Positions 3,619-54,085 of a stretch of DNA of 64,000 nucleotides are shown one piece after another. The notes beneath the pieces are model-generated. The model did no database searches. It had not been told where the DNA came from and saw only the letters and a list, made by a program, of their open reading frames with translations. The position numbers were made by a program, and so were the translations under genes. The number at the start of each line of letters is the position of its first letter. The first letter of the stretch is position 1. Source of the DNA: Escherichia coli (GTDB lineage Bacteria > Pseudomonadota > Gammaproteobacteria > Enterobacterales > Enterobacteriaceae). The stretch lies in assembly GCF_051903065.1 (NCBI RefSeq), contig NZ_CP178438.1. The stretch is one strand, 5' to 3'.

Positions 3619-6510
<2,892 letters not shown>

Positions 6511-6514
<4 letters not shown>

Positions 6515-7398
6515 GCTTCCTCGGTTGTCGTCTGTTGTTGCGGATTTTTCACCGCACGCACATGCTCTTCCAGTTCAATAAACGACGGACGTTCGCTGGA
6601 ATAGAGCGTTTTGCGACCAAACTCAACGGCGATAGGCGGTGCGTAACCGTTCAGATTAGAAAGCAGTGTGACTTTGACGCACTGCATCATTTTGCTGGTT
6701 TCGGCGCTTTTCTGACGTAAAACACTCGCTAATGGGGAAATAAATCCGTAAGCCAATAAAATGCCGAGGAAAGTCCCCACCATCGCATGTGCGATAAGCG
6801 CCCCCAGCTCGGCGGCAGGACGATCGGCTGAACCTAACGCGTGAACGACCCCCATTACAGCCGCGACAATACCAAACGCCGGAAGTGAGTCCCCGACCAG
6901 CGCCAGACTGTTCGCCGGGACTTCTGCCTCGCTTTCGTGCGTCTCAATCTCTTCATCCATCAGGGCTTCGATTTCGAAGGTGTTCATGTGACCGCTGATA
7001 ATCAGGCGCAGATAATCGACGATAAAATCAAGCATGACGCTATCCGCGATGATGCGTGGGTAGCTGGCGAAGATCTCGCTCTCACGGGGATTTTCAATAT
7101 CACGTTCCAGCGAAAACATCCCCATCTGCCGCGATTTCGCCATCAACCGATAAAGCAGAGCCAGCAGATCCATATACATTGCTTTGGTGTATTTGGAGCG
7201 ACGAAACAGCAATGGCAGCGCTTTAAGCGTGCCTTTAATCGCTTTGCCATTATTGCCGACGATAAACGACCCAATCCCTGCACCGGCAATAATCACCAGT
7301 TCAGCGGGTTGATAGAGTGCTCCAAGGCTTCCACCGGTCATCAAATAACCGCCGAAAACTGTACCGAGAACAACCAGGTAACCTAATAAGATAAGCAC
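6511..7398 (-). CDS. motA: flagellar motor stator protein MotA
   Basis: 295-aa [37 protein letters not shown]; 4-bp overlap with motB. Confidence 0.97.
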
Positions 7399-7466
7399 GA
7401 CATCATCCTTCCACTGTTGACCATGACAGGATGTTCAGTCGTCAGGCGTTAACGCGCGATTGGGGC

Positions 7467-7499
7467 AAAAAAAAGCAGCGGTACGTCGTTACCGCTGCT
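7467..7499 (-). terminator. Rho-independent terminator downstream of flhC
   Basis: 9-bp stem gcagcggta/taccgctgc followed by a run of 8 T on the minus strand, between flhC stop and motA start. Confidence 0.7.
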
Positions 7500-7524
7500 G
7501 GAATGTTGCGCCACACCGTATCAG

Positions 7525-8103
7525 TTAAACAGCCTGTACTCTCTGTTCATCCAGCAATTGTGGGATAATATCGGCAGGATTCTGGGAAAGTTTACGTCTT
7601 TTTACTGCCCGGGATGGCGGTTGACATAAGCTGCAGGCAAAGCTGCCAACAGGCTGGTGAGCGTGGGTAATAAAATTGCCGCCGCAGCAGTTGCAGCTGG
7701 AAAGTTGCAGTAATCCACTTTCAACAAACCGCACCAATGTCCAGGCACGGGTTAATGCCAGCAGCGGTCCTTCTTCTGCTTGCGGGCACTGTTCGAGGTA
7801 TAAACGGTAGGCTTTGATCACCGCATCGACGCCATTACACAAACCGGTTTTCAGTAAAAACTGCCATGCATTACAGAACATCGAAGCATGAACGTTTTGT
7901 TCCCAGGTCATAAACCAGTCGGTTGAAAATGGCAGCATGCCTTTCGGCGGTGGGCTTCCGCGCAGTTCTTTATAAAGTTTTATCAGGCGTCCGCGACTTA
8001 ACTGTGTTTCGCTTTCCAGCATCTGCAAACGAGCGCCCAGGGTGATCAATTCCATTGCCAGCTGAATATCCCGCGCTTCCTGAACAATGCTTTTTTCACT
8101 CAT
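7525..8103 (-). CDS. flhC: flagellar master regulator FlhC
   Basis: 192-aa [30 protein letters not shown]; synteny. Confidence 0.97.
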
Positions 8104-8105
8104 GA

Positions 8106-8456
8106 TCAGGCCCTTTTCTTGCGCAGCGCTTCTTCAGGCTGATTAACATCATTCAGCAAGCGTGTTGAGAGCATGATGCCGGTATGAATTTGCTGGAGAT
8201 CGTCAACGCGGGAATCTTGCGTCAACTGAGTAATCGTCTGGTGGCTGTCAAAACGGAAGTGACAAACCAGCTGATTGGTTTCTGCCAGCTTAACCATTTG
8301 CGGAAGAGTCAGTGCCGCTAATGTTGTCGCCATTTCTTCATTTATGCCGAGACGAAACATAGCGGACGCTTTGTCCTGAACAATCAGACGCTGTGCAAGT
8401 AGTAAATATGACAAGTTGATGTCATAAATGTGTTTCAGCAACTCGGAGGTATGCAT
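8106..8456 (-). CDS. flhD: flagellar master regulator FlhD
   Basis: ORF 8106..8465; conventional start at [24 protein letters not shown] gives 116 aa. Confidence 0.95.
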
Positions 8457-9235
8457 TATTCCCACCCAGAATAACCAACTTTATTTTTATGCGGTTTCAC
8501 CGCACCCCGTGATGTCGCCGGGAAGCCCCGGTAAAAAATAATTAGCATTAGAATAGTTGCGATAAGCTGCAATAAGCAGAGCCACCTTTTTGGTTTAATA
8601 AGTCCTTACAAATAGAAGGGGGTCTTTACACTTATCTAAGATTATTCCTAAATCGACGCAACTGTACTCGTCACTACACGCACATACAACGGAGGGGGGC
8701 TGCGATTTTCATTAATGTGTGATGCAGATCACACAAATCACTCAATTACTTAACATAAATGTATAAGTCATACTTTTGTTTTGGGTGTATTTCAATCTGT
8801 TAAAAAGTTTTTCGCTACGCTAGCAAGCAAAAATGAAACAGGAATAATCGAAATGGGATGTTGCGCACAGTTAAAATAACTCACCGTAAATAATCATCTG
8901 CTATAAATAATCACTTTCATGCAATACCAGATAAGCTATTTTTAAACAGACACTTACCGCACAACAAACTAATTAAATACAAAGAAAGGCAACAATCAAC
9001 TTAATGTTAATAAAATGTTTTGCATATATTAACCACTTGTTTAATGCGGGGAATCAGTACATTATTTTCTTATAATTACAGTTGAAATCATATGATCACC
9101 GAGAGTGATTGATTAATTGTCTTTACTAATAATCAGACTAATATTTACCTGTTTGACTGAGTTGGGATTGCGTCGTTTCTCCATTAGGAGTAAAGCTTTA
9201 ATGTCACCTGAAGTTCACAGAATAAGGAACAGGTT
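8457..9235. promoter_or_regulatory. flhDC upstream regulatory region, AT-rich, no IS element present
   Basis: About 780 bp AT-rich intergenic between flhD and uspC; exact promoter and factor sites not mapped here. Confidence 0.5.
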
Positions 9236-9664
9236 ATGAGCTATAGCAATATTCTTGTCGCCGTTGCGGTTACACCGGAAAGTCAGCAACTGCTGGCAAA
9301 AGCGGTATCTATCGCCAGGCCAGTAAAGGGACACATCAGTTTAATTACTCTCGCTTCCGACCCAGAAATGTACAATCAATTAGCTGCGCCGATGCTTGAA
9401 GATTTACGCAGCGTGATGCAGGAAGAAACGCAAAGCTTTCTTGATAAGTTAATTCAGGATGCGGGGTATCCCGTTGACAATACGTTTATTGCCTACGGTG
9501 AGTTAAGCGAACATATTCTGGAAGTTTGTCGCAAATATCATTTCGATTTGGTGATTTGCGGTAATCACAATCACAGTTTCTTTTCGCGAGCATCCTGCTC
9601 GGCGAAAAGAGTGATTGCCTCAAGTGAGGTCGATGTGCTGTTAGTTCCACTTACGGGAGATTAA
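9236..9664 (+). CDS. uspC: universal stress protein C
   Basis: 142-aa ORF MSYSNILVAVAVTPESQQLLAKAVSIARP; Usp fold; synteny. Confidence 0.95.
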   Translation: MSYSNILVAVAVTPESQQLLAKAVSIARPVKGHISLITLASDPEMYNQLAAPMLEDLRSVMQEETQSFLDKLIQDAGYPVDNTFIAYGELSEHILEVCRKYHFDLVICGNHNHSFFSRASCSAKRVIASSEVDVLLVPLTGD

Positions 9665-9670
9665 CCGCTC

Positions 9671-13026
<3,356 letters not shown>

Positions 13027-21630: not shown

Positions 21631-22171
21631 CTAACTCTTTCGCAGAGCGAGTGAGTAGGAATTAGTCACAACCATCGCCTCATCACAACCATAGAATGTT
21701 TTAGCAGAGATCACCTGCTGCACCGCCGAGTTACCTACAGAACCAGAATAATTTTTCGCCTGAATAACCATATCCTTACCAAATCGAGTGACGAAGAGAT
21801 CTGCCCCCTGATCTTGCGTTCTCTTGGTTTCTTTGACGTCATAGCCCATAGTCTGGAATACTTCCACAAGGAAATCTTCAAACTGGAAACCGTCCATTGC
21901 ATCAACTAAATACATGGTGACGAATTTGTTAGGGTTAAAATGTTCGAGCCGTGTAGCTAATCTATCAACCAGAATATCAAAATAAATATGTTCGCACACA
22001 GCTAAGTATTTTTTAACTTCATCAAATGAAACTAAAGGAACACCAGGCGTAGCCTCCACTTTTTCATTGAACTCTACTGATGAGAACTCTATTTTATTGC
22101 TCCATATATAGAATAGAAACAATGAAAGATCTGCCCTAAAAGTGGTACCCGCTTCCTCAATCCATGACTTC
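21631..22171 (-). pseudogene. Mrr-type restriction endonuclease domain gene, 5' end removed by IS1
   Basis: ORF 21631..22185 begins inside the IS1 left end; product has the Mrr_cat-like motif GADLFVTRFGKDMVIQAKNY (D..QxK). Confidence 0.6.
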
Positions 22172-22939
22172 GGTGATGCTGCCAACTTACTGATTTAGTG
22201 TATGATGGTGTTTTTGAGGTGCTCCAGTGGCTTCTGTTTCTATCAGCTGTCCCTCCTGTTCAGCTACTGACGGGGTGGTGCGTAACGGCAAAAGCACCGC
22301 CGGACATCAGCGCTATCTCTGCTCTCACTGCCGTAAAACATGGCAACTGCAGTTCACTTACACCGCTTCTCAACCCGGTACGCACCAGAAAATCATTGAT
22401 ATGGCCATGAATGGCGTTGGATGCCGGGCAACAGCCCGCATTATGGGCGTTGGCCTCAACACGATTTTACGTCACTTAAAAAACTCAGGCCGCAGTCGGT
22501 AACCTCGCGCATACAGCCGGGCAGTGACGTCATCGTCTGCGCGGAAATGGACGAACAGTGGGGCTATGTCGGGGCTAAATCGCGCCAGCGCTGGCTGTTT
22601 TACGCGTATGACAGGCTCCGGAAGACGGTTGTTGCGCACGTATTCGGTGAACGCACTATGGCGACGCTGGGGCGTCTTATGAGCCTGCTGTCACCCTTTG
22701 ACGTGGTGATATGGATGACGGATGGCTGGCCGCTGTATGAATCCCGCCTGAAGGGAAAGCTGCACGTAATCAGCAAGCGATATACGCAGCGAATTGAGCG
22801 GCATAACCTGAATCTGAGGCAGCACCTGGCACGGCTGGGACGGAAGTCGCTGTCGTTCTCAAAATCGGTGGAGCTGCATGACAAAGTCATCGGGCATTAT
22901 CTGAACATAAAACACTATCAATAAGTTGGAGTCATTACC
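22172..22939 (+). mobile_element. insAB: IS1 copy 1 (768 bp, insA 22227-22502, insB frame 22421-22924), no target-site duplication
   Basis: Left end ggtgatgctgccaacttactgat and right end aagttggagtcattacc; Ins[40 protein letters not shown]; flanking 9-mers differ (catgacttc vs gccgcttca). Confidence 0.95.
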
Positions 22940-33371: not shown

Positions 33372-33973
<602 letters not shown>

Positions 33974-53317: not shown

Positions 53318-54085
53318 GGTGATGCTGCCAACTTACTGATTTAGTGTATGATGGTGTTTTTGAGGTGCTCCAGTGGCTTCTGTTTCTATCAGCTGTCCCT
53401 CCTGTTCAGCTACTGAAGGCGTGGTGCGTAACGGTAAAAGTACTGCCGGACATCAGCGCTATCTCTGCTCTCACTGCCGTAAAACATGGCAACTGCAGTT
53501 CACTTACACCGCTTCTCAACCCGGTACGCACCAGAAAATCATTGATATGGCCATGAATGGCGTTGGATGCCGGGCAACCGCCCGCATTATGAGCGTTGGC
53601 CTCAACACGATTTTCCGCCATTTAAAAAACTCAGGCCGCAGTCGGTAACCTCGCGCATACAGCCGGGCAGTGACGTCATCGTCTGCGCGGAAATGGACGA
53701 ACAGTGGGGCTATGTCGGGGCTAAATCGCGCCAGCGCTGGCTGTTTTACGCGTATGACAGGCTCCGGAAGACGGTTGTTGCGCACGTATTCGGTGAACGC
53801 ACTATGGCGACGCTGGGGCGTCTTATGAGCCTGCTGTCACCCTTTGACGTGGTGATATGGATGACGGATGGCTGGCCGCTGTATGAATCCCGCCTGAAGG
53901 GAAAGCTGCACGTAATCAGCAAGCGATATACGCAGCGAATTGAGCGGCATAACCTGAATCTGAGGCAGCACCTGGCACGGCTGGGACGGAAGTCGCTGTC
54001 GTTCTCAAAATCGGTGGAGCTGCATGACAAAGTCATCGGGCATTATCTGAACATAAAACACTATCAATAAGTTGGAGTCATTACC
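53318..54085 (+). mobile_element. insAB: IS1 copy (768 bp; insA 53373-53648, insB frame 53567-54070) with 9-bp target-site duplication
   Basis: IS1 terminal repeats; TSD ttgatatgg at 53309-53317 and 54086-54094; InsA differs from copy 1 at a few residues. Confidence 0.95.

Follow-up and report, generated by a model that had tools for sequence, protein, structure and literature searches.

An uninterrupted flhD-uspC control region in an IS1-rich, non-K-12 strain of Escherichia coli

K-12 stocks of Escherichia coli become more motile when an insertion sequence (IS) inserts upstream of flhD, as the initial annotation of the DNA studied here noted and as is well described (PMC11237407, PMC8652233, PMC5289928, PMC5493358). 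The locus raises the question of whether this strain carries such an element, or the trace of one, and of what can be concluded on lineage and on flhDC regulation when it does not. The initial annotation had described the flhD-uspC interval as IS-free and took this both to help place the strain outside the K-12 stocks and to predict native flhDC regulation. The interval lies in a 64-kb stretch of DNA, referred to below as the window. Gene order around it is motB, motA, flhC and flhD, with flhC and flhD on the minus strand, followed by the divergent uspC and then otsA and otsB. Open reading frames and annotation boundaries agree that positions 8457-9235 make up the entire intergenic region (779 bp), with the ATG of flhD at 8456 (minus strand) and that of uspC at 9236 (plus strand) giving exact coordinates:

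7525-8103, minus strand: flhC coding sequence, 192 aa (WP_001291603.1)
8106-8456, minus strand: flhD coding sequence, 116 aa (WP_001295647.1 in 23CRST027, BW25113 and W3110)
8457-9235: flhD-uspC intergenic region, uninterrupted, 779 bp
9236-9664, plus strand: uspC coding sequence, 142 aa, with four amino-acid differences from K-12

The FlhD and FlhC protein sequences are identical to those of K-12.

The interval was compared with those of the K-12 references MG1655, W3110 and BW25113, taken from the complete-genome collection. Their intergenic regions measure 1,555 bp in MG1655 (IS1H), 1,978 bp in W3110 (IS5) and 779 bp in BW25113, which has no insert. Alignment of the window to the BW25113 region was ungapped, with 18 substitutions, no indels and 97.7% identity. 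The two share their length, gap-free collinearity, promoter hexamers, a 198-nt leader and the FlhD/FlhC proteins, whereas they differ by the 18 substitutions, among them the CRP half-site (TCACG in K-12, TCACA in the window) and five positions in the leader. A length of exactly 779 bp was found in seven of nine phylogenetically spread strains (K-12, BL21, O157:H7, STEC307, S65EC, SF-166 and the window); the regions of strain 042 (780 bp) and of the divergent strain MFDS1022581 (781 bp) depart from it through single-base indels. The locus is thus a collinear, divergent flhD-uspC intergenic region of the ~779 bp seen in the canonical IS-free state.

The positions of the K-12 elements were taken directly from the MG1655 and W3110 sequences by prefix/suffix mapping onto the window. 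The MG1655 insert is an IS1 of 768 bp with an 8-bp target duplication, and that of W3110 is an IS5 of 1,195 bp with a 4-bp target duplication (TTAA). The backbone on both sides of the insertion points is the same in the window, which possesses both target sequences but neither the elements nor their duplications:

8750-8753: TTAA, the IS5 target of K-12 W3110, single-copy and intact in the window
8754-8761: CATAAATG, the IS1 target of K-12 MG1655, single-copy and intact in the window

Relative to the start of flhDC transcription, the second of these, the equivalent of the MG1655 IS1 site, lies 100-107 bp upstream. No inverted repeats of at least 12 nt were identified within 8457-9235, nor any meaningful direct repeats, the sole pair of at least 12 nt being a chance 13-mer whose copies are 751 bp apart. 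No transposase ORF was found in the interval; its one ORF of at least 40 aa (40 aa, 9117-9239) extends into uspC and shows no IS similarity. Similarity to IS1 or IS5 across 8457-9235 consists of just 8-11-nt matches, which is chance level. The marks of an IS-activated allele, namely 0.8-1.2 kb of extra IS DNA between the flhD promoter and uspC and a duplicated target (8-9 bp for IS1, 4 bp for IS5) as flank or scar, are both missing from the interval. The alignment to K-12 that the initial annotation had proposed as a check, with a cryptic scar or deletion as contrary evidence, therefore revealed neither, and it is confirmed that the interval contains no IS, IS scar or deletion. That an element was once inserted and later excised, with a retained duplication or small deletion changing regulation, is a vanishingly improbable reading and is effectively refuted: IS1 is abundant in the strain, the window alone holding two complete copies and a partial one, so the opportunity for insertion exists, but there are no indels against BW25113, 779 bp is the modal length across phylogenetically diverse strains, the known IS target sites are single-copy and repeats of 12 nt or more are absent apart from the chance 13-mer pair.

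How common this state is was determined among complete E. coli genomes. A 1,559-bp query bridges IS-sized gaps and its coverage is blind to IS, so queries of at most 504 bp and junction-specific queries were used instead. The promoter-proximal half gave a single uninterrupted match, with at least 80% query coverage, in 5,246 of the 5,413 matching complete genomes, and the uspC-proximal half was uninterrupted in 5,359 of 5,420. The region is accordingly uninterrupted in about 5,250-5,360 of ~5,420 complete genomes (~97%); as the 504-bp query still joined at least one IS1-containing genome (H71), the interrupted fractions are lower bounds. Of the junctions queried specifically, that of IS1 in MG1655 was identified in 60 genomes and that of IS5 in W3110 in 57. 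These two laboratory alleles account for most of the ~3% of genomes that are interrupted, some 50 interrupted genomes having neither junction. IS absence is the default state of the species and amounts to nothing beyond chance.

A different arrangement was seen in the K-12-like strain LTE950 (NZ_CP184740.1), which has 774 extra bp in its flhD-uspC region (1201-2753 of the extracted locus). Internal IS1 sequence makes up the extra DNA, and 127 bp of the promoter region are directly duplicated on either side of it. The simple IS1 insertion of MG1655 looks different, and the LTE950 arrangement may have come about by rearrangement or engineering, or be an artefact of assembly.

It is with respect to lineage that the initial annotation went too far. 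Its reading, that the IS-free state is informative evidence against a laboratory K-12 stock, is very improbable: the MG1655 (IS1) and W3110 (IS5) references do carry an element, with junctions in 60 and 57 genomes, but the K-12 stocks BW25113, DH1, DH5alpha, C600, J53 and NCM3722, among others, are uninterrupted at both targets, IS-free stocks of MG1655 and BW25113 have been reported (PMC11237407), and ~97% of all genomes lack an IS here. With a 60-bp K-12 query that covers the two targets, matches without interruption and at 100% identity were obtained in many K-12 stocks (BW25113, DH1, DH5alpha, NEB 5-alpha, C600, J53, RR1, NCM3722, RV308, ER2796 and GM4792), as well as in several assemblies labelled MG1655; some non-laboratory isolates also match this 60-mer exactly. 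This agrees with the literature, in which MG1655 stocks vary in the presence of an IS upstream of flhD and BW25113 is natively IS-free (PMC11237407), while IS5 is sporadic in Keio derivatives (PMC11237407; also PMC8652233, PMC5289928, PMC5493358). IS-bearing subpopulations have been reported for the IS1-carrying MG1655 stock CGSC 7740 and for Keio strains. Because the IS-free state is common to ~97% of E. coli and to many K-12 stocks, it carries almost no discriminating power, and the step from IS absence to lineage is refuted as an inference.

The strain is indeed non-K-12, but on other grounds: the 18 intergenic substitutions, near-identity to 23CRST027 and a ~37-kb island, the last by the 23CRST027 annotation. 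The K-12 haplotype, recognised by the CRP half-site TCACG and by near-identity to MG1655/BW25113, was not found in the interval, given its 18 substitutions in 779 bp. The best genome match of the 64-kb window is 23CRST027, a human faecal isolate from Ecuador, at 99.994% identity with no mismatches and four single-base gaps. One of these gaps, at 21655, is a base gained or lost in a short run of A (AA) within a restriction-endonuclease pseudogene. The gaps may be sequencing or assembly noise, or the window may derive from a sister isolate such as 23CRST031. Over flhD-uspC the window is 100% identical to both 23CRST027 and 23CRST031 and differs at one position from ECNB21-M121. Against O157:H7 it is 99.6% identical over 1,559 bp, and in an O157:H7 sample within 8457-8960 (99.4%) it differs only at -84, -58 and +11 relative to the flhDC transcription start.

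This start was placed from the MG1655 annotation, in which the end of the antisense RNA AsflhD lies 198 nt upstream of the flhD ATG, and from the description of AsflhD as starting 22 nt inside flhD and being ~220 nt long (PMC9600491). By coordinate transfer its equivalent in the window is 8654. The -10 and -35 hexamers were assigned by their position relative to the mapped start. The elements of the control region are as follows:

8715-8736, minus strand: CRP site centred at -71.5, with the core TGTGA-N6-TCACA at 8718-8733, a perfect consensus core
8684-8689, minus strand: -35 hexamer TTGTAT, with a 17-bp spacer
8661-8666, minus strand: -10 hexamer TACAGT
8637-8650, minus strand: presumed RcsAB/RcsB box (+5 to +18), TAGGAATAATCTTA in the window and TAGGAAAAATCTTA in K-12
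8457-8654, minus strand: flhDC 5' leader, 198 nt (MG1655 asflhD annotation and PMC9600491)
8435-8654, plus strand: equivalent of the AsflhD antisense RNA (coordinate transfer from the MG1655 annotation, PMC9600491)

None of the nine strains shows any change in the promoter hexamers or the spacer, and TTGTAT-17-TACAGT and TGTGATCTGCATCACA are present at the expected positions and conserved across strains, as sequence. The centre of the CRP site at -71.5 is the established placement (Soutourina 1999, cited in PMC5493358). Its core TGTGA-N6-TCACA was identified in eight of the nine strains, the sole exception being K-12, which has TCACG (half-site at 8718). It is therefore K-12, and not the window strain, that is the outlier at this half-site in the nine-strain sample; its allele is a minority one, though not strictly private to K-12. 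The leader is as long as in BW25113 (198 nt) and shows five substitutions relative to K-12, at +11, +36, +37, +54 and +74. The RcsAB box is presumed to occupy +5 to +18, a placement attributed to Francez-Charlot 2003. Rcs boxes have been described just downstream of the flhDC transcription start (PMC11879457).

A consensus promoter scan missed the flhDC promoter, as TTGTAT/TACAGT matches the consensus at 8 of 12 positions and the threshold was 9 of 12; its one match (8848-8877, plus strand) is at chance level. An Rfam scan of 7000-11000 at E<=1 gave no match, hence the positions of AsflhD and MotR by transfer from MG1655. The equivalent of the MotR sRNA, at 7467-7561 (flhC 3' end/motA leader), has two substitutions relative to K-12, at 7513 and 7557.

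The reading best able to explain these data, to which we give a probability of about 95%, is that of an ordinary uninterrupted control region, with no mobile element or footprint, in which normal flhDC regulation is expected. Its structural part was observed directly in the alignments described above. The locus would be an ancestral-type flhDC-uspC divergent control region of a non-K-12 E. coli nearly identical to 23CRST027. Judging from the K-12 literature, its sigma-70 promoter (TTGTAT-17-TACAGT) would be activated by CRP at the consensus-core site at -71.5, and repression would act through the long A/T-rich upstream region and the Rcs box just past the start; proteins listed as binding the flhDC region are RcsAB, OmpR, LrhA, H-NS, Fur, IHF, MatA and YjjQ (PMC5493358). 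The 198-nt leader would be, as in K-12, a target of CsrA, small RNAs and AsflhD (PMC9600491). With no IS or footprint in place, flhDC would be expected to stay under its normal repressor and activator inputs, and not to be derepressed as in MG1655 (IS1) and W3110 (IS5), where the effect of insertion at this locus is documented (PMC11237407, PMC8652233, PMC5493358).

The prediction of native flhDC regulation stands only in part. Since the IS is absent, the core promoter, CRP site and leader are present and FlhD and FlhC equal those of K-12, IS-mediated derepression is excluded. Against a wider functional reading, eight of the 18 differences from K-12 fall in the stretch from -84 to +74. Common polymorphisms that O157:H7 and other strains also have make up five of them; the remaining three are very rare, two next to the CRP site and one within the presumed Rcs box. 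In flhD sense, the rare substitutions relative to K-12 are as follows:

8738: T>A at -84
8712: T>A at -58
8644: A>T at +11

On account of these three changes, K-12-like regulation cannot simply be assumed. In addition, the genes of the trans-acting regulators lrhA, rcsB, ompR and hns lie outside the 64-kb window. Native regulation is thus a reasonable description only if narrowly taken to mean that no IS derepresses flhDC, the phenotype not being readable from sequence.

The alternative that survives best is that these lineage-private substitutions tune flhDC without any IS, so that its regulation would depart from the native K-12 pattern; we consider this unlikely. The alleles -84A, -58A and +11T are absent from O157:H7 and from all other sampled genomes except 23CRST027, 23CRST031 and ECNB21-M121, and a 41-bp query that matches only if -58A or -84A is present identified just these three among 5,426 complete genomes. 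They were gained stepwise: A16 has none of them, ECNB21-M121 carries those at +11 and -58, and -84 is further present in the window strain. The three sites are confined to 96 bp of the 779 bp, around the promoter (P about 0.04), but this test of clustering is post hoc. The changes at -84 and -58 flank the CRP site, and the -10, the -35 and the CRP core are all untouched, which argues against an effect on flhDC. The +11 position lies in TAGGAA[A>T]AATCTTA, the presumed RcsAB box (+5 to +18), directly beside the first of the leader's CsrA GGA motifs; the change would bring the box one base closer to the consensus TaAGaatatTCctA. Substitutions are not denser here than nearby: relative to A16 there are four in the 779 bp of the intergenic region (0.51%) and 82 in the surrounding 17.5 kb (0.47%), and relative to ECNB21-M121 three differences occur in 17.5 kb, one of them in the intergenic region. 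Selection on the rare promoter substitutions is not claimed, because their density matches this local background and their clustering was noted post hoc. That flhDC expression has been retuned in the 23CRST027/23CRST031/ECNB21-M121 lineage by these substitutions, two flanking the CRP site and one in the presumed Rcs box/CsrA-site region, is likewise unlikely.

The ordinary, uninterrupted control region favoured here is found in a strain with a considerable IS1 load. Full-length copies of IS1 were identified at 22172-22939 and 53318-54085 (99.9% and 98.6% identical to the IS1 of MG1655), along with a partial copy at 33598-33973. In the near-identical 23CRST027 genome, 39 places match the first 25 kb of the window, most of them presumably IS1 copies. 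The nearest intact IS1 is ~13 kb from the flhDC promoter, so that an element that could supply K-12-style activation is close at hand in this IS1-rich strain, but the promoter remains IS-free.

According to the 23CRST027 annotation, a genomic island of ~37 kb (21500-58200) is located between yecA and a tRNA-Leu/Cys/Gly cluster. It encodes an Hhe (DUF4011) anti-phage protein (23939-29674, minus strand), two DUF262 proteins and a type I restriction-modification system accompanied by an M48 peptidase and a YecA-like gene. Also annotated within it are two integrases, a gene for a B-family DNA polymerase and remnants of IS1 and IS5-family elements.

The absence of an IS from flhD-uspC in this strain was correctly observed, but it is an ordinary negative result at a well-studied locus. 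Its practical value is one of caution, IS absence being the default of the species and frequent among K-12 stocks: the presence of a specific junction (IS1 of MG1655, IS5 of W3110) is informative, whereas its absence is unfit as a lineage marker. For motility work with this strain, what is relevant is that it is IS1-rich, with an intact copy 13 kb away, and that its promoter carries three rare substitutions. If these do retune flhDC, they would parallel, in nature and without an IS, the promoter mutations that arise under selection for motility in the laboratory.
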